Assembly: GCA_043810775.1 (NCBI GenBank)
Contig: JBDRNU010000012.1
Span: forward strand, 1-18,484
Length of the DNA: 18,484 nt
DNA from: an archaeon
Lineage (GTDB): Archaea; Nanobdellota; Nanobdellia; Pacearchaeales; GW2011-AR1
Reading direction: 5' to 3'
This document shows positions 8,346-18,403 of this stretch, in pieces (position 1 is the stretch's first letter; each line of letters starts with the position of its first letter). The notes beneath the pieces are model-generated. The model had not been told where the DNA came from. It saw only the letters and a program-made list of their open reading frames with translations, and did not search any database. The translations under genes and the position numbers were made by a program.

Positions 8346-9095
8346 ATGGATACCCAAATATTCGTAGACCTTGGAATGACCAAAACTGAAGCTGAGATCT
8401 TTATTGAAATATTAAAACTAAAGGAGACCTTGATAGGGTCCTTAATAAAAAGGACGGGAATGCATAGAGGGACAGTTTATAATTCTGTAAACAACCTGAT
8501 TAAAAAAGGTTTTGTTTGTTTTTCTGATAGGTCTGGAAAAAGATACTATAAGTATTCAGGTGAAAAGATTTTTGAGACAGTTATTGATGAAAAAGAGAGG
8601 AAACTTGAGGAAGAAAAAAAAGAGATAAACAACTTTTTAAAAGAGATAAGTAAAATTAGTGGAGAAGTTAGTAATAAAGTTCAAGTCTTTTATGGAGTTG
8701 AGGCTTTTAAAATGCTTTTCTTAGAAATTTATGAGGAGTGCAAAAAGAATAATTGTGAGTATTTATTTTTAGGAAGAGGGGGAGAAATGCAGGATGCGGC
8801 AGGAGAGAGTTTTTATAAGTATACTCAGAAACTTAAAAAGAAGCTGAAAGTAAAATGTAGGGTTATATTAGATAAACAAACTACTTCACACCCTTATCAT
8901 AAAGTTATAGAGGGAAATTTAAAGTATATTCCAAGTAAGATATACAGCCCAGTCAACTTCTGGATTTATCAAGATACTATACTTTTAGTATTATTTGGAG
9001 GTTTGCCCTTAGTAAGCATAAAGATAAAAAGTAAAGATCTTGCAGATGGATTTAGAAATTATTTTGAATATTTGTGGAAAATGGCTAAAAAATGA
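8346..9095 (+). CDS. TrmB-family transcriptional regulator
   Basis: LGMTKTEAEIF..wHTH (GMHRGTVYNSVNNLIKKGFV), coiled linker, VFYGVE, ending FEYLWKMAKK. Confidence 0.9.
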   Translation: MDTQIFVDLGMTKTEAEIFIEILKLKETLIGSLIKRTGMHRGTVYNSVNNLIKKGFVCFSDRSGKRYYKYSGEKIFETVIDEKERKLEEEKKEINNFLKEISKISGEVSNKVQVFYGVEAFKMLFLEIYEECKKNNCEYLFLGRGGEMQDAAGESFYKYTQKLKKKLKVKCRVILDKQTTSHPYHKVIEGNLKYIPSKIYSPVNFWIYQDTILLVLFGGLPLVSIKIKSKDLADGFRNYFEYLWKMAKK

Positions 9096-10997: not shown

Positions 10998-11420
10998 ATG
11001 GGAAAGGCTAAAAATACAACTCAAGCAGCTGCAGAGAGAGGAGAGTACGATATTTTAGGAAATACAGTAGAAGAGCTTGCTGGAGAGTTTTATTTCTGGG
11101 ATGTTATAAAAGTGTTTAAAGCAGAGCATGGACTAGACGAAATTGATTATAGTGATAGAGTTCCAGTACAAGTAGGAAAGAGAAAAGGAGAGTATAGGGG
11201 TATTGAGCAGCATATTGATGCACCTCAAGCAATAACAGTTGAATTAAGAAAGCCACTAGGGGGAGAGAAAGTCAAACCTCAGATAGTAATTCCTTCAACT
11301 TTTGAATATAAAGGGCATAATATTCCTGTAAGAGGGTGGTATGATGAAAGATTTCCAGAGGGTTTTGGAGGAAATCATGGATCTTTTCATTATGGAGCTG
11401 ATGGTGCTCTTTATGGTTAA
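10998..11420 (+). CDS. Hypothetical protein
   Basis: 140 aa; TTTAAATA at 10970, 28 nt upstream; Gly/aromatic C-terminal tail. Confidence 0.75.
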   Translation: MGKAKNTTQAAAERGEYDILGNTVEELAGEFYFWDVIKVFKAEHGLDEIDYSDRVPVQVGKRKGEYRGIEQHIDAPQAITVELRKPLGGEKVKPQIVIPSTFEYKGHNIPVRGWYDERFPEGFGGNHGSFHYGADGALYG

Positions 11421-11459: not shown

Positions 11460-12206
11460 TTATTTCTTAGCTATTTTCCAGAGTAGATTAAACTGTTCCT
11501 TAAAATCATTGGTCATTTCTTTATTTTTAATTAAAATAGTAATTATAGGATCTTTTTCAATAGTTATCAAAGTTACATCACCTAAAGTTTGAATAGAAGT
11601 CATTGAAGGATGGGGAAGATATTTGATTTTGGAATTATCCTGAGAGTAAAATTTATCTTTTCTTGCTTCTTCTGCTGCAATCTTTAAAGTTTTTAATTTC
11701 AATTCTTTTCTTTTTTTATAAACATAAAACTCAAGTAAATTCTGGAGCTCTTTAGAATATTTTTTTCTTTCAACAATACTATATACAAAAAGATTCTTAT
11801 CCTTATCAGCTTCTTTGAATAATAAAGAATAAGCTGTTCTTTGCCCTTGAACTCCAAAGAATATCTCTACAAAAGTTTTTTCTTTAACTTGATTATATCT
11901 TTGCTTTAATTTTGGAAGTTCTTGATTAAACTCTTTTCTTTTTTCTAAAAGGCTATTAATATTTTCAGTTACATAATCAGTTATTCTGTCAGGGGGAGAA
12001 GGCACGAATAATTTGACTTTATTCTTCACAATATAGCTAACTAATCCTTTTCTTTTTAGTGAATCAAGAACTTCGTATATCCTGCCAGAATTTAATCCTG
12101 CTTTCTTAAGTATATCGCCTGATTTTGCCTCTCCTAAATCTAACAAAGCAAGATAAACTTTAGACTCAGTGGGAGTTAAGCCTATTTTCTCTAATATTTC
12201 TTTCAT
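11460..12206 (-). CDS. TrmB-family transcriptional regulator
   Basis: LEKIGLTPTESKVYLALL, RIYEVLDSLKRKGLVS, IFFGVQG, FNLLWKIAKK. Confidence 0.92.
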   Translation of the reverse strand: MKEILEKIGLTPTESKVYLALLDLGEAKSGDILKKAGLNSGRIYEVLDSLKRKGLVSYIVKNKVKLFVPSPPDRITDYVTENINSLLEKRKEFNQELPKLKQRYNQVKEKTFVEIFFGVQGQRTAYSLLFKEADKDKNLFVYSIVERKKYSKELQNLLEFYVYKKRKELKLKTLKIAAEEARKDKFYSQDNSKIKYLPHPSMTSIQTLGDVTLITIEKDPIITILIKNKEMTNDFKEQFNLLWKIAKK

Positions 12207-12240
12207 AACTTATCAAAATCAATCTCCTATATAAATCTTA

Positions 12241-12271
12241 TTATTACTCCACACTGTAGGTGGGGTAATAA
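12241..12271. promoter_or_regulatory. Inverted repeat, putative operator between the TrmB and J-domain genes
   Basis: TTATTACTCCAC-N7-GTGGGGTAATAA (11/12 paired), next to the TrmB gene's TATA at 12228-12235. Confidence 0.65.
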
Positions 12272-12312
12272 ATAAAAGCAGGAAACTAGAGTCAGAGTCA
12301 GGAGAAAATAAA

Positions 12313-12975
12313 ATGATAAATATGACTTTAGACGATGCTTGCAGAATTTTGAATATATCTGGAGATGCAGATATAGGTTCAATAAAAAAAGCTTATAGAA
12401 AAAAAGCTATTGAAACTCATCCAGATCTAACTAAAGATAACGGGGAAAGATTTAAATTAGTGAATACTGCTTATGAATTTCTCAAAAACAATTTTAGCTT
12501 TCTGAAAACAAAGAAAGTTGTAGATATTCCTGTAAATCCTGATAATTACTGGGATGGCTTGATTATGCGCATGGATCCTATAGAAAAAAGATTTAGATTT
12601 AGTGCAGATGTGCCTGACTGTGAATGGGATTTAAGAAATAAGTATGTCCTGCTTAAGGGTGTAGGAGCTATTAGCAAGCAGTGGGGAGTTATATTAGTTT
12701 CATATGATATTGATAGGTGCCCTATTCATTATAATTTAATATGGGAATATAGGAATCATGTAGATAACGCTCGTGTAGATTGTTTAGGAGGAGGCTGGCT
12801 GGATATTGATTGGAGCAGAAACTTAGATAGTGGAGATGCCACAATAAAAACATATGGGGAAAGTGGAGATTATGGACCGCCTGCAAGCTTGTTATTAGTC
12901 AGGACTTGCCTGGATTCAATGGTTAATGACTATCTTGGATATACTAAAGAGTATATGACTTTTGATATTAAGTGA
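12313..12975 (+). CDS. J-domain protein fused to a Janus/Ocnus (PHPT1-like) phosphohistidine phosphatase-like domain
   Basis: IKKAYRKKAIETHPD J-domain (aa 5-58); C-terminal KYVLL, H139, CLGGG, YGESGDYGP; GGAG SD at 12301. Confidence 0.8.
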   Translation: MINMTLDDACRILNISGDADIGSIKKAYRKKAIETHPDLTKDNGERFKLVNTAYEFLKNNFSFLKTKKVVDIPVNPDNYWDGLIMRMDPIEKRFRFSADVPDCEWDLRNKYVLLKGVGAISKQWGVILVSYDIDRCPIHYNLIWEYRNHVDNARVDCLGGGWLDIDWSRNLDSGDATIKTYGESGDYGPPASLLLVRTCLDSMVNDYLGYTKEYMTFDIK

Positions 12976-12999
12976 GGGGGAAAAGTCTAAAAATTGCCA

Positions 13000-13614
13000 T
13001 TAGACTTCTAATCTTTCTATTGACCTTTTAAGATTTCCTCTTGCTTGCTGCTCATATTCGGTGAAGAAAAAATCAGTCAAATAAATTCTCTGACTTAAAA
13101 ATCTTTGAAGAATCTGTTTCCTATGAGTCTTGTAAACTTCTTCAGGCACCCAGCTATATTCCTGCCTAATTCCTGTATCAATTTTGAAATAAGGGTCTGG
13201 CTTTCCTAACATTGACAAATCAATATCAAGCATTAATTTACCATCAATATCTTCAGGAATTTCTAAGTATTTTGTCAAAAGAATAAGTCTTGAAACTTCA
13301 TCTGCAAATTCATTTGGCATTTTAAGCTTCTGACAAAGTAAACAAGCAAATTCAGCACTTTTTTCCTCATTGTCTGAACGAGTTGTATCATAAATAATAT
13401 CATGAAACCACAATGCAAATTCCAATTCATTAGGATTGGCTGCAAATTCCTTAACTCTATCAAATTCACTAATTGAGTTAGCAATATGCCAATCAAGTGT
13501 GTGGTAATATCTTAAAGGATGAGAGTATGCTTGCTCAATTAATTTAAAATAGTAGTCAGAATTGCCCTGAGCTCTAACATTTTCAAAAAATTCGTTCCAT
13601 CTATCTTGTATCAT
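13000..13614 (-). CDS. Predicted HD-superfamily metal-dependent phosphohydrolase (COG4339-like)
   Basis: RYYHTL..HI, ALWFHDIIYD, NEEKSA, LDIDLSMLG, IRQEY, R..ILQRFL. Confidence 0.88.
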   Translation of the reverse strand: MIQDRWNEFFENVRAQGNSDYYFKLIEQAYSHPLRYYHTLDWHIANSISEFDRVKEFAANPNELEFALWFHDIIYDTTRSDNEEKSAEFACLLCQKLKMPNEFADEVSRLILLTKYLEIPEDIDGKLMLDIDLSMLGKPDPYFKIDTGIRQEYSWVPEEVYKTHRKQILQRFLSQRIYLTDFFFTEYEQQARGNLKRSIERLEV

Positions 13615-14156
13615 TTTCCAAACCTATCGGCAAACATTTGGTAAACCTCCTCAGGAACATACTTCTTGATTACGTCCTGCCAACCTTCAGGACCAATCAA
13701 ACCTTTAACTAAGCTAGAACTAATCTCTGCAGATTTTCTTGGAGGAATTAAAAAAATAGTAGTTATACCATATTCATTTCCGTTAGAAAAATTTATGATA
13801 TCTTCATTTATATAGCGCATTGCCCTCTCATATTCATAATCTTGGTTGTTCCTTATCCCCCTAATAAGATATTTAGCGTCCTTTGATTTTGCATATTGTA
13901 CAAGATATTTGAAATCAAAGCTGTCAATCTCAATATTAGGACAATCTTTAGTCACTTGAGCAATCATAGAAATCCTTTCTTCTAAAGAAAACATTGAAGC
14001 TTTTGCAGGATTAATACCTACGGCAACAATTAGATTATCGAACATATAAGAACCTTCCTGCATCATCCATAAATGTCCGTTAGTTACAGGGTCAAAACTC
14101 CCAGCATATACTGCCTTTATTGGGGTGCTTCTATCTTGTAAGTTTTTATCAACCAT
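13611..14156 (-). CDS. coaD: Bacterial-type pantetheine-phosphate adenylyltransferase
   Basis: AVYAGSFDPVTNGH, FSLEER, LIRGIR...DYEYE, ISSSLVK, YVP. Confidence 0.9.
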   Translation of the reverse strand: MVDKNLQDRSTPIKAVYAGSFDPVTNGHLWMMQEGSYMFDNLIVAVGINPAKASMFSLEERISMIAQVTKDCPNIEIDSFDFKYLVQYAKSKDAKYLIRGIRNNQDYEYERAMRYINEDIINFSNGNEYGITTIFLIPPRKSAEISSSLVKGLIGPEGWQDVIKKYVPEEVYQMFADRFGK

Positions 14157-14248: not shown

Positions 14249-15202
14249 ATGGACTTAATAGATAAAAAATTGATATGCGAACTTGATTTAAATTGCAGAC
14301 TGCCCTTGACAAAAATAGCAAAAAAACTCAGAGTGGGAAGAAATGTTGCTGACTATAGAGTAAAAAATCTTGAAAAACAAGGGATAATAAGAAGATATAT
14401 TTGCTCAGTAAACCTAGGAGTGCTTGGATATAAAACCTATAAAATTTATTTTAAAACAAGAAACATAAAGATAAAAGAGCAAAATTTCATCAGATATATC
14501 TTGAAAGATAAAAGAGCAATACACTTTTTAAAAACAGAAGGAGAGTATGATTATTCTGTAACTGTGGCTGTTAAAAACATTCTCGAATTGGATAAATTTA
14601 TGATGGATTTGAAAAATAAATTCAGAGAACTAATAAAAGAGTATTCAATAAGTATTGTGGTTTATTCAAAAATATTCAAGTTTCAGAAGCTATTCTTAAA
14701 CAACATAAAAGAGGTGAAATTTGAGAGATATTCTGGAGAGGAGAAAATAATTAAGATAGATGAAAAGGACAAGAGGATAATAAATCTTCTTTCACAAAAT
14801 GCTAATTTGCCACTTGTAGATATTGCTGAGAAACTAAGGCTTTCAATAGATATTGTTAAATATAGGATGAAAAATCTATCAAAAAATGTAATAAATTCAT
14901 ATAGGGTAATAATAAATTTCGATAAAATTGGGTATTATCACTATGTTATTATGCTACAAATAAAACAAGCCACTAAACAAGATGAAGAAAAACTGATTTC
15001 TTATTGTTCTCAAAAAAAGAATATTATGTATTGTGTCAAGAGGATAGGAGTATATGATTTTGAAATCAATGCAGCAATTACTGATATAAATGATCTAAAT
15101 AATTTCCTTTCTGAAATCAAGGAAAAATTTGGAGGAATAATTGATTCTTATGGTATTCTGATAAATAGCGAACTAATAAAGCTAAATTATGTGCCTTTTT
15201 GA
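14249..15202 (+). CDS. Lrp/AsnC family regulator with an internal tandem duplication
   Basis: Two HTH+RAM units: MDLIDKKLICELDLNCR..IAKKL..YRVKNL and IDEKDKRIINLLSQNA..IAEKL..YRMKNL; GEYD and GVYD motifs. Confidence 0.92.
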   Translation: MDLIDKKLICELDLNCRLPLTKIAKKLRVGRNVADYRVKNLEKQGIIRRYICSVNLGVLGYKTYKIYFKTRNIKIKEQNFIRYILKDKRAIHFLKTEGEYDYSVTVAVKNILELDKFMMDLKNKFRELIKEYSISIVVYSKIFKFQKLFLNNIKEVKFERYSGEEKIIKIDEKDKRIINLLSQNANLPLVDIAEKLRLSIDIVKYRMKNLSKNVINSYRVIINFDKIGYYHYVIMLQIKQATKQDEEKLISYCSQKKNIMYCVKRIGVYDFEINAAITDINDLNNFLSEIKEKFGGIIDSYGILINSELIKLNYVPF

Positions 15203-15214
15203 GGTTTAAACAGC

Positions 15215-15937
15215 CTATTTTTTAGCAATTTTCCATAATAATTGAAACTGTTTTCTATAAGTTTGAGCAAGAAATTTACTTTCAATAAGCAATCCATGAA
15301 GAGGTTCAGTAAAAGTAATAATAGCCACTTTATCTCCATAAATAAAAGTGGATGTAGGATCAAAGTACTGTTTAGGGAGAAATCTATAGGTAGTAGTTTC
15401 TTTATGCCCAGGAAGATAATTATCTCCTTCTCTAACTAAGACTTTTTCTTTTAATTTACTCTTTTTCATCTGAGAAAAAAACTGTTCCATGATAATAGAG
15501 TCAGTTTGCATGAATTTCTTTTCATCTACTCCAATTACTAAACTTTCCTGACCTTTTTTTAAAGTAGTGAGGATATCTTTTTGAATTACTCTTACTACTT
15601 TTTTTCCAGAATAAAGTGAAGCTTTAGTTTCTTCTTTAGAAGATTTTTGAAACTCCTCAAGTTTGGGAATTACTTCCTCTAATTCTTTAAGTTTGTCTCT
15701 TTCAATTTCAATCAGATGTGAGGGAGAAGCTGCTTCAAAGAATCTTTTATTATCTTTGATTATAAAAGAAGTTAGTCCTTTTTCTTGCAATCTCTCTAAA
15801 GTATCATATACATAAGGCCTATACAAGCCAGATCTTTCAGCTATTTTAGAAACAGTAGAAGGCCCTATTTTCAACAAAGTAAGATAAACTTGGATCTCAT
15901 TTTCAGTTAACCCAGTTTGTTTTAGTATTTCTTTCAT
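15215..15937 (-). CDS. TrmB-family transcriptional regulator
   Basis: GLTENEIQVYLTLL, GLYRPYVYDTLERLQEKGL, IYGDKVAII, FQLLWKIAKK. Confidence 0.92.
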   Translation of the reverse strand: MKEILKQTGLTENEIQVYLTLLKIGPSTVSKIAERSGLYRPYVYDTLERLQEKGLTSFIIKDNKRFFEAASPSHLIEIERDKLKELEEVIPKLEEFQKSSKEETKASLYSGKKVVRVIQKDILTTLKKGQESLVIGVDEKKFMQTDSIIMEQFFSQMKKSKLKEKVLVREGDNYLPGHKETTTYRFLPKQYFDPTSTFIYGDKVAIITFTEPLHGLLIESKFLAQTYRKQFQLLWKIAKK

Positions 15938-16792: not shown

Positions 16793-18403
16793 ATGAGATT
16801 TGATGAGGAGCCAGAAAAGATTTTGGGAAGGATGCTACAAGATCCACTTGAAAATTTAGAATCTATTTGTTTGTTTAATGATATGTGGGAAAGAGATTTG
16901 GAGTATGCTCAGAAAGGCAGAATTGGAAGGCTTCTATCTAGAACTAAAAATAGACTTACTCCTAAAAGAGTTCTTCTTGCGCAGCCTGAAAAACATTCAA
17001 CTACAAGAATAAGGCAAGAAGCAAATATATTTGTGAGATATGCTTATTTAGCAGAGACTTTATGTAAAAATTTAGGATGGAAAGACGCAGAGGGAGCCCA
17101 CTGGTATCAAGGGAAAATTGAACCAACGGAACAAGAAGTAGAAGATACTCCTTTAATGATGTCAGAAAATATGGATAGAGTCTCAACTGATATGGTTGTA
17201 AGCAAGGAAATTATTCCTGTAATAAAAGAAGAAAGAATATTAGAGGTATTTTTTGATGGATATTATAGAGAGCCTAATATAATTCGTCCAAAAGTTAGAT
17301 TTGAACTTAAGCAAGAAGTTGATGGAGAATATGTAACAATATCTAGAGCTTTTCCTGTAAATGAATTCCAAACTGCACTGAGTGATCAAGGTTTGGCTCA
17401 ACGTAGGCGTCCTCCAGTAGAAGAAGAACTGATGGAAAGTGCGGTTATAAATCCTTGGTTTGTATGGCAGGGATTAGAACAAGAAATGACTCCAAGTTTA
17501 GTTTATGAAGCTTTTGTTGAACATTATAAAAAGAAATTTTTTGAAATGATGAATACTCCAGGATACTTTTATCATAATCATCTTTTGAGATTTAGATCAA
17601 TTGCTAGTAATATAAGTGGTCTTGATCCCGAATCTAATGGATTAAATATACCAATTGAAGAATTAAGAAACTTAGAAGAAGCGCTTGAGGAAATAGACCA
17701 TTCTGGTGAATTACTAGGAATTAAAATCCATAGAGCAGAGAGAACAATTGAGATGCTGACACAGAAATACTCTCGATTAAAATATAGTAAAAGAGGGGGT
17801 AAAGAAGAAGGTGAAGAAGGAGAAGCTGTGTATGAAGAACCTGATGCAGATATAAGAGAAGATGTACAAGAGTCTCCTTTAGAAGCAGAAACTAAGAAAG
17901 AGAGAGATTCTGGAAAGAGAAAAATGGGAAGAGTGCAAGATACAGAGGCATATTCAATTAATGGATTTAGAAGAGATATTGGAATTTCAGTTAGGTCTAT
18001 GTGGGAAGCTAACTATGCAAGAATACTTATGTATGATGGGGTAGATTTTGAATATGAGCCAGATACATTTGTACTGGACGTGCCAGAAAGTGCAAGGCCT
18101 CTTTTTGATGGAAAAGAGCAAGTAAGATATACTCCTGATTTTCATATTACTGGGACTCATAGATATGTGGAAGTAAAAGGTGAATGGCATGATGCTCATG
18201 GACAGGAAACTGCTCATAAAATAATGCTTTTAAAAGCAAAGCATCCTGAAATTACTGTGGAGACGGTAAGTACTGATGATTATAGAAAATTAGATGCAGA
18301 ATATAGAGAGAAAATTAATGATTCTGAGGATTTTGTGAGATGGGAATATGGTGGAAGAAAAAGAGGCCGTAATTTAGCTACTCATCCTGATGAGTTTAAG
18401 TAG
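16793..18403 (+). CDS. Large acidic protein with a C-terminal PD-(D/E)XK endonuclease domain
   Basis: RSMWEANYARIL (R401), FEYEP, YTPDF (D449), YVEVKG (E460, K462); N-terminal ~330 aa not recognised. Confidence 0.8.
   Translation: MRFDEEPEKILGRMLQDPLENLESICLFNDMWERDLEYAQKGRIGRLLSRTKNRLTPKRVLLAQPEKHSTTRIRQEANIFVRYAYLAETLCKNLGWKDAEGAHWYQGKIEPTEQEVEDTPLMMSENMDRVSTDMVVSKEIIPVIKEERILEVFFDGYYREPNIIRPKVRFELKQEVDGEYVTISRAFPVNEFQTALSDQGLAQRRRPPVEEELMESAVINPWFVWQGLEQEMTPSLVYEAFVEHYKKKFFEMMNTPGYFYHNHLLRFRSIASNISGLDPESNGLNIPIEELRNLEEALEEIDHSGELLGIKIHRAERTIEMLTQKYSRLKYSKRGGKEEGEEGEAVYEEPDADIREDVQESPLEAETKKERDSGKRKMGRVQDTEAYSINGFRRDIGISVRSMWEANYARILMYDGVDFEYEPDTFVLDVPESARPLFDGKEQVRYTPDFHITGTHRYVEVKGEWHDAHGQETAHKIMLLKAKHPEITVETVSTDDYRKLDAEYREKINDSEDFVRWEYGGRKRGRNLATHPDEFK

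Follow-up and report, generated by a model that had tools for sequence, protein, structure and literature searches.

The 18,484-nucleotide stretch of DNA analysed here (the window; contig JBDRNU010000012.1 of assembly GCA_043810775.1, from a Pacearchaeales archaeon) carries an open reading frame (ORF) of 220 amino acids, P0001, which joins an intact J-domain to a distant homologue of the phosphohistidine phosphatase PHPT1 (Janus/Ocnus family). As judged by sequence comparison, the architecture is real and new, and its PHPT1-like part represents a divergent PHPT1 subfamily of DPANN-type archaea. We propose that P0001 is a class-C (type III) J-domain protein, its function being specified by a divergent module from the PHPT1/Janus-Ocnus superfamily, and we give this explanation, taken whole and with its mechanism, about even weight. 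The features of the gene that are used below are the following.

12313..12975, + strand: the whole ORF (P0001), with J-domain, linker and PHPT1-like domain; 220 aa plus stop.
12300..12304, + strand: AGGAG ribosome-binding-like motif, 9 nt 5' of the ATG, read directly from the sequence.
12343..12489, + strand: J-domain, aa 11-59 (Pfam DnaJ PF00226; the same span was given by a profile search of the genome).
12418..12426, + strand: HPD tripeptide, aa H36-P37-D38, read from the sequence.
12490..12549, + strand: variable linker, aa 60-79, of low conservation and of varying length in alignment A1.
12550..12972, + strand: PHPT1/Janus-Ocnus-like domain plus a family-specific N-terminal extension, aa 80-220 (profile A2, E 3.5e-58).
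12640..12642, + strand: K110, equivalent to PHPT1 Lys21; Lys in 9/12 rows of alignment A5.
12727..12729, + strand: H139, equivalent to PHPT1 His53 (the general base); His in 11/12 A5 rows.
12784..12798, + strand: L158-G159-G160-G161 loop, the LGGG of which is invariant in A1 and A2, then W162, equivalent to PHPT1 Arg78.
12862..12864, + strand: S184, equivalent to PHPT1 Ser94; Ser in 10/12 A5 rows.
12886..12909, + strand: family-specific helix S192...R197..C199-L200-D201, in which S192 is equivalent to PHPT1 His102.

The N-terminal part of the protein is a J-domain. Pfam DnaJ, with its cut-off at 27.8 bits, matches P0001 at 47.7 bits (E 1.7e-12); the match spans model positions 4-55 of 63 and leaves out the last J-domain helix. 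The best PDB match of the whole protein is also a J-domain (2och_A, E 7.8e-08, phmmer). The HPD tripeptide, whose place in J-domains is between helices II and III, is present in all six J-fused members of the family, and DnaJ is above its cut-off in all six. TIGR02349, the model of canonical (class A) DnaJ, reaches only 43.3 bits against a cut-off of 377.2 and aligns to aa 11-59 only, and P0001 gives no match along the whole length of that model, which would take in a Gly/Phe region, a zinc finger and the C-terminal domains. Because the NCBIfam DnaJ models cover the J-domain segment only, with scores far under their cut-offs, P0001 is not a DnaJ orthologue but rather a J-domain joined to another module. 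The start at 12313 is supported by the upstream AGGAG motif and by a homologue at a second locus (L015), the upstream stretch of which (GCAGGAGAAAAATAAAATG) is near-identical to that before the 12313 ATG. The GC content around the ORF (0.34) is similar to that of the remainder of the window, and a search of 12100-13100 gave 0 sigma-70 promoters and 0 intrinsic terminators, a result that is uninformative for an archaeon.

The identity of the C-terminal domain was established with three sets of sequences: A2, a profile of 8 C-domains of the family with no bona fide Ocnus member; A6, a profile built from 7 standalone proteins of archaea that all pass the Pfam Ocnus cut-off; and A5, a merged profile and alignment of 12 rows. 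An exhaustive phmmer search with aa 61-220 against 1.84 billion representatives returned 11 proteins at E <=1e-3, namely the query, eight relatives (P0002-P0007, P0009 and P0011) and P0008 and P0010. The last two are long repeat proteins that aligned in many short stretches, and they were dropped as spurious. P0011 (121 aa), which the C-domain matched at E 5.7e-4, is a bona fide Ocnus protein, with 61.7 bits on Pfam Ocnus and a match to human PHPT1 (2ai6_A) at E 8.8e-4. Profile-profile comparison with hhalign links A2 to P0011 (probability 96.9%, E 1.3e-10) and to A6 (probability 97.9%, E 5e-13), and it links the window C-domain alone to A6 (probability 96.4%, E 1.1e-9). In turn, A6 matches PHPT1 structures (human PHPT1 2ai6_A) at E 4e-15, and A5 matches PHPT1 at E 1.1e-12 over chain residues 13-123 of 125. 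Two other members of the family, P0003 (20.2 bits) and P0006 (19.5 bits), add Pfam Ocnus matches that are sub-threshold. The relationship of the C-domain to PHPT1 is real but distant, and it takes the archaeal intermediates to reach it. An earlier note, made from the letters of the window alone, had claimed an intact HPD J-domain fused to a PHPT1/Janus-Ocnus homologue, and the above-cut-off DnaJ match and the two hhalign links to A6 bear it out.

The residues of the catalytic site point in the same direction for P0001. PMC4817053 gives the catalytic-site set of PHPT1 as Lys21, His53, Ala54, Arg78, Ser94 and Ala96, with Ala54 and Ala96 contributing via their backbone NH, and His53 is described in PMC11277029 as the general base that activates water. 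Equivalences were taken from the PHPT1 chain in the PDB alignments together with A5. The earlier note had named H36-P37-D38, K110, H139, W162 and S184, had taken the equivalents of Lys21, His53 and Ser94 to be kept and Arg78 to be replaced by Trp, and had given the order of the PHPT1 motifs; each residue is where it was placed, the equivalences hold, and the order agrees with the PHPT1 chain. Further aligned pairs are Y140 with Ala54, E183 with Tyr93, G185 with Met95 and D186 with Ala96. The spacing is slightly shorter than in PHPT1, with 29 residues versus 32 from Lys to His and 20 versus 22 from His to the first Gly of GGG. The positions that are invariant in the family (A1, A2) are Y111, W124-G125, Y146, LGGG 158-161, S192 and C199, of which S192 is invariant in A1 and C199 in A2; a basic residue occupies position 197 in 8/8 A2 rows. 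The C-domain probably still binds phosphate, and it may hydrolyse P-N bonds via H139, a catalytic role that we infer from its sequence.

The fusion is rare and conserved. Among the 1.84 billion representatives, ~10 cluster representatives of the family were found, 6 of them with a J-domain. The six proteins that carry J-domain and C-domain together are P0001, P0002, P0004, P0006, P0007 and P0015, the last being the full-length form of the P0005 cluster, whereas P0003, P0009/P0016, P0013/P0017-21 and P0014 are J-less forms. Full-length homologues from independent metagenomes (uncultured archaea) keep both domains at 33-44% identity; conservation of the fusion at this distance, in six proteins or more, shows that its two halves have stayed together. 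A survey of the architecture and the expectation that it was not already widely annotated were both parts of the earlier note, and the outcome agrees with it: the precomputed Pfam annotation of family members lists PF00226 only, and the sole source name is 'hypothetical protein'. The architecture is invisible in annotation because the profile databases currently detect only the J-domain. In a phylum sample of 400 genomes, each at least 90% complete, the family profile gave matches in four, only one of which is a family member; this protein, in G251 (= P0017), is J-less and His-less, and the other three matches are weak (E 7e-7 to 6e-6) and correspond to standalone Ocnus proteins. The J-domain plus PHPT1-like family is thus very rare. 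A whole-protein word-index search for homologues returned only P0001 itself, no relative was found in viral contigs and no match in phage and plasmid records, and a search with A5 for longer fused forms found none in 8000 candidates of 281-2000 aa, although this search was weak, having missed a known 282-aa member.

Pfam Ocnus itself is above its cut-off in 13/400 phylum-sample genomes and in 0/27 genomes of the window's own family. The earlier note had called the family best known from eukaryotes; this agrees with the literature on Ocnus/PHPT1 found by keyword search, which concerned eukaryotes only, but the standalone archaeal proteins in those 13 genomes qualify it. Four Ocnus-family matches occur in one genome, G228 (three within 3.3 kb at C7:42768-46038, in open frames of 160-167 aa, and one at C37:77304-77591), and they look like a local family expansion. 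An Ocnus match in G365 (C6:59622-59849, E 1.3e-8) lies within a 527-aa open frame and may be a further PHPT1-like fusion. The genome that holds the window, G000, has a second weak Ocnus-like ORF, P0012 (105 aa; L002:1483-1800, = G000:C9, ~8434-8751, + strand), with Pfam Ocnus at E 1.3e-3 and 19.3 bits and an hhalign probability of 66.7% (E 5e-5) to the archaeal Ocnus profile. P0012 keeps the His and Ser equivalents but neither the GGG loop nor the remainder of the SG.YG motif; its neighbours are a small ORF of ferredoxin-like type and a membrane ORF rich in Cys.

G000 is an assembly of 995 kb in 26 contigs, 80.1% complete with 0.33% contamination, and its relatives have genomes of 0.4-1.4 Mb. 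That the host is an archaeon, as the earlier note had it, is confirmed by ribosomal protein S3Ae in G000, a family that matched only the four archaeal control genomes. There are two S3Ae matches in G000 (C23:4765-5277 and C11:1404-1925), which point either to paralogues or to a mixed bin.

In the explanation that we favour, the C-domain would bind a phosphoryl group and would most likely hydrolyse a P-N bond, that of phosphohistidine or perhaps of phospholysine or a small phosphoramidate, by the mechanism of PHPT1, in which His activates water. The J-domain would dock via HPD on Hsp70 in its ATP state and trigger ATP hydrolysis, and this docking would tie the phosphatase-like module to Hsp70 or its clients. 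The most obvious phosphohistidine-bearing protein available would be the organism's own nucleoside diphosphate kinase (NDK), which is present in G000, split across two contig ends; two or three receiver domains were also found there. The Hsp70 partner would be encoded either in the unassembled ~20% of the genome or in another cell.

A number of results weigh against this explanation, and we give them together with the rivals on which they bear. Concerning the homology, the direct Pfam Ocnus (PF05005) match of P0001, over aa 103-189 (12619-12879) and model positions 7-90 of 108, reaches only 18.6 of the 23 bits required (E 0.0021), and by itself it is not significant. The Ocnus profile search of the C-domain that the earlier note had proposed therefore gave a divided answer, with the direct Pfam search falling short and the hhalign comparison with A6 succeeding. 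Searches of the PDB with the whole of P0001 (phmmer) found J-domains only and no PHPT1, and A2 alone likewise found no PHPT1, its best matches being unrelated (E 0.32). The ESM Atlas offered no usable feature match, and the Atlas's own model, a poor one (pLDDT 0.42), had only unrelated structural neighbours (TM <=0.37). On its Pfam score the C-domain of P0001 should be filed as a divergent relative inside the Ocnus superfamily and not as a Pfam-defined member. Concerning distribution, the family profile matched 0/60 nearest relatives, and a gene absent from every one of these is no core function. Concerning the substrate, the earlier note had thought of self or host signalling proteins as possible targets; no histidine kinase was found in G000, where the HATPase_c matches are GyrB and a HATPase_c_3 protein.

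The main rival takes the PHPT1-like domain for a pseudo-phosphatase that binds without catalysing: it would recognise a ligand or protein that is phosphorylated or anionic, and the J-domain would hand this client to Hsp70, so that P0001 would be an adaptor and not an enzyme. We regard this as possible though somewhat unlikely. It draws its strength from the variation of the catalytic residues. The column of Arg78, a residue for substrate anchoring or transition-state stabilisation, reads W/E/I/D/K/K/C in the family, with Arg in 0/12 A5 rows, and is unconstrained, and alignment to PHPT1, read by eye, gave no clear equivalent of Arg45. The catalytic His is replaced by Arg in the J-fused P0007 and is also lost in three J-less subfamilies, P0009 (A1, A2), P0013/P0017 and P0014 (the last two read by eye), Lys is absent from P0004, P0005/P0015 and P0007, and Ser is absent from P0004 and P0007. 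Because His, Lys and Ser vary within the family, not all of its members need be active. Moreover, its best-conserved positions (W124-G125, Y146, S192 and C199) lie outside the catalytic set of PHPT1. Nevertheless, K110, H139, S184 and LGGG are all present in P0001 itself, His is kept in 11/12 and Ser in 10/12 A5 rows, and Arg is missing from 5/7 Pfam-passing standalone archaeal proteins, the equivalent of Arg78 being kept in only two of the seven, so that its loss need not mean lost function.

A second rival concerns the other half of the protein, and it proposes that the J-domain does not work with the Hsp70 of its own cell: in this small-genome, DPANN-type lineage it would engage the Hsp70 of another cell, a partner or host, or it would have been co-opted for an Hsp70-independent role. 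The evidence behind it also counts against the favoured explanation. Hsp70 (PF00012) has 0 matches in the 80.1%-complete G000, in a search in which the control matched 12/14 reference genomes, and 0 matches in G456, the sole other genome known to hold the fusion (completeness not given). The 'Hsp70-coupled' label of the earlier note is on this result unproven. Within the window's family, Hsp70 was found in 5/27 high-quality and 3/36 other genomes, as compared with 317/400 in the phylum sample, where J-domain matches occur in 323/400. The figure of 317/400 fits the statement in PMC8204110 that many DPANN have a complete DnaK-DnaJ-GrpE system. By cross-reading of the two match lists, 83 genomes with a completeness of at least 90% are Hsp70-less, and a J-domain match persists in 11 of them; other short HPD proteins with unrelated C-termini are present in several Hsp70-less relatives (G007, G018, G029, G036 and G039). 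On the other hand, G000 is 80% complete, and since dnaK, dnaJ and grpE are usually clustered, one missing contig could hide them all; from the frequencies above and this completeness we reckon, as a rough estimate, an unassembled dnaK in G000 to be unlikely, though well short of exceptional. Among the high-quality J-bearing genomes of the window's family, 5/6 also have Hsp70. For a partner-cell role, the N-terminus of P0001, as read from the sequence, shows neither a signal peptide nor any other evident mark of secretion, and no transfer route is known for the lineage. Taking both sides together, we consider this rival improbable. Another J-domain family, of ~360-375 aa, is encoded in genomes without an Hsp70 match (L010:1435-2556 in G018 and L021:1438-2523 in G456); its proteins have HPD and then a C-terminal region of ~300 aa that is similar by eye in both.

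An extension of the second rival combines both halves: small-genome DPANN-type archaea that have lost their own Hsp70 would retain a set of HPD J-domain proteins as effectors, with which to take control of Hsp70 in the cell on which they live, and P0001 would thereby bring a PHPT1-like N-phosphatase to the phosphohistidine signalling or nucleotide metabolism of the partner. We rate this as a long shot; if true, prokaryotes would have an equivalent of the viral J-domain hijackers. Finally, one could take the ORF for a frame that is open by chance, or for a gene in decay, and its resemblance to PHPT1 for coincidence. This view draws on the sub-threshold Pfam Ocnus match and on sequencing runs, among which no RNA run was listed with the sequence and only four DNA runs, at small shares (0.06-0.13), but it is already effectively refuted, and has a negligible probability, given full-length homologues at 33-44% identity in independent metagenomes with both domains kept, an upstream AGGAG and start that are conserved with L015, and profile-profile matches of E 1e-9 to 5e-13 to bona fide Ocnus proteins.

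The earlier note had further suggested that the gene is controlled by a divergent TrmB-like neighbour. The adjacent genes in the window are these.

11460..12206, - strand: divergent TrmB-like helix-turn-helix (HTH) regulator, 248 aa (Pfam TrmB 58.3 bits); possible regulator.
13000-13614: ORF with a weak Pfam HD-domain match, the convergent downstream neighbour.
13611-14156, - strand: bacterial-type CoaD (pantetheine-phosphate adenylyltransferase; TIGR01510, 165 bits against a cut-off of 103), convergent downstream.

Three loci with context could be compared, those of the window, L015 (genome G456) and L016. A TrmB-like gene is divergent in two of them (the window and L016), and the L016 gene is 29% identical to the window neighbour (E 7e-22). 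However, the L016 protein is closer to another paralogue in the window (89.7 versus 77.8 bits), and a specific TrmB orthology across loci was rejected on this account, while the divergent neighbour in L015 is a double AsnC-type regulator, a homologue of which lies 1.3 kb downstream in the window (27% identity, E 8e-36). What stands is that an adjacent regulator is a recurring theme, without a specific pairing having been established. L015 and L016 are ordinary archaeal chromosome: the former is surrounded by FtsY, phosphoglycerate mutase, GINS and S3Ae, and the latter by ArgRS, a MiaB-like enzyme and, by eye, ribosomal protein S2 and other housekeeping genes. The matches of PADLOC to P0001 and its neighbours were limited to weak HTH ones, and a mobile-element or defence reading was dropped, as there was no viral, phage or plasmid match and PADLOC gave only those weak matches. 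In a DNA comparison with G001, of the same genus, a 7-kb query from the window matched only in one unrelated 424-bp stretch and two weak pieces, the J-Ocnus locus itself being without a match.

Several other observations were made in the window. It contains three paralogous TrmB-like regulators of ~245 aa, 24-29% identical to one another, at 8346-9095 (+), 11460-12206 (-) and 15215-15937 (-), and a double AsnC-type regulator at 14249-15202 (+); such a density of regulators, all within 7 kb, is unusual for a 1-Mb genome. The CoaD ORF at 13611-14156 overlaps the HD-domain ORF by 4 nt and is of bacterial type inside an archaeal genome. The 424-bp stretch shared with G001 is a 96%-identical DNA copy (L066:1538-1957) of a 140-aa ORF at 10998-11420 (+), in a different gene context, and the remainder of the 7-kb query is unmatched there or only 68-73% identical. 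The two copies differ at the C-terminus. The window ORF belongs to no Pfam or NCBIfam family, and the gene may be mobile or may have been exchanged recently. A 536-aa ORF at 16793-18403 (+) has a C-terminal, sub-threshold match to Phage_endo_I (E 3.9e-05, 23.8 bits against a cut-off of 29.1) and no PADLOC match.

To our knowledge, PHPT1-type phosphohistidine phosphatases have been studied almost only in animals. The superfamily is nevertheless present as standalone proteins in ~3% of the DPANN archaeal phylum sample, and one divergent branch of it has become joined to a J-domain. Should the C-domain prove active, P0001 would provide the first link of the Hsp70 cycle to the removal of N-linked phosphate; being compact and made of two domains only, it also offers a way into the role of PHPT1-type enzymes in prokaryotes. 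Both genomes with the fusion apparently lack Hsp70, which raises the further question of how a conserved HPD J-domain is used where there is no resident Hsp70.

Human PHPT1 is a 14 kDa phosphohistidine phosphatase with structures in the PDB (2AI6, 2HW4, 2NMM, 2OZW and 2OZX). P0001 resembles it in that the profile links extend the homology over nearly the whole 125-aa chain, with the same order of motifs and with the equivalents of Lys21, His53, Ser94 and LGGG kept. It differs in scoring under the Pfam cut-off, in having Trp for Arg78 and no clear equivalent of Arg45, in the conserved N-terminal extension of ~20 aa (D..I..MS..D.R.RF.AD) and the W124-G125, S192 and C199 that are the family's own, and in being fused to a J-domain, PHPT1 being a single-domain protein. 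The nearest bona fide relatives of the family, as measured by hhalign (E 5e-13), are the standalone archaeal Ocnus proteins of the same phylum (~105-130 aa; P0011 and genes in L018, L019, L020, L060, L064 and L065). They share with the P0001 family the Tyr of 'H..I..aY' and the SG.YG.P motif, and, as in P0001, a hydrophobic residue mostly occupies the Arg78 position, five of the seven being without Arg. Unlike P0001, they are without a J-domain and without the N-terminal extension, and they reach 45-61 bits on Pfam Ocnus as compared with 18.6.

The classical prokaryotic phosphohistidine phosphatase is bacterial SixA, which has the histidine phosphatase superfamily fold and is unrelated to PHPT1; the chemistry proposed for P0001, removal of phosphate from histidine, would be like that of SixA, although the fold differs. 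Among J-domain proteins, auxilin/GAK combines its J-domain with a PTEN-like phosphatase-like domain. DnaJ-Fer, in which a J-domain is joined to a ferredoxin, is described from Thaumarchaeota and plants in PMC3564930. In keyword searches of the literature at title and abstract level, we found no description of a J-domain paired with a PHPT1-like domain. Like these class-C (type III) proteins, P0001 has an HPD J-domain together with an unrelated, function-specifying domain, and like them it is without the Gly/Phe, zinc-finger and C-terminal client-binding domains of DnaJ. It is set apart from the other class-C proteins by a genome in which no Hsp70 was detected and by a partner domain that is PHPT1-like.

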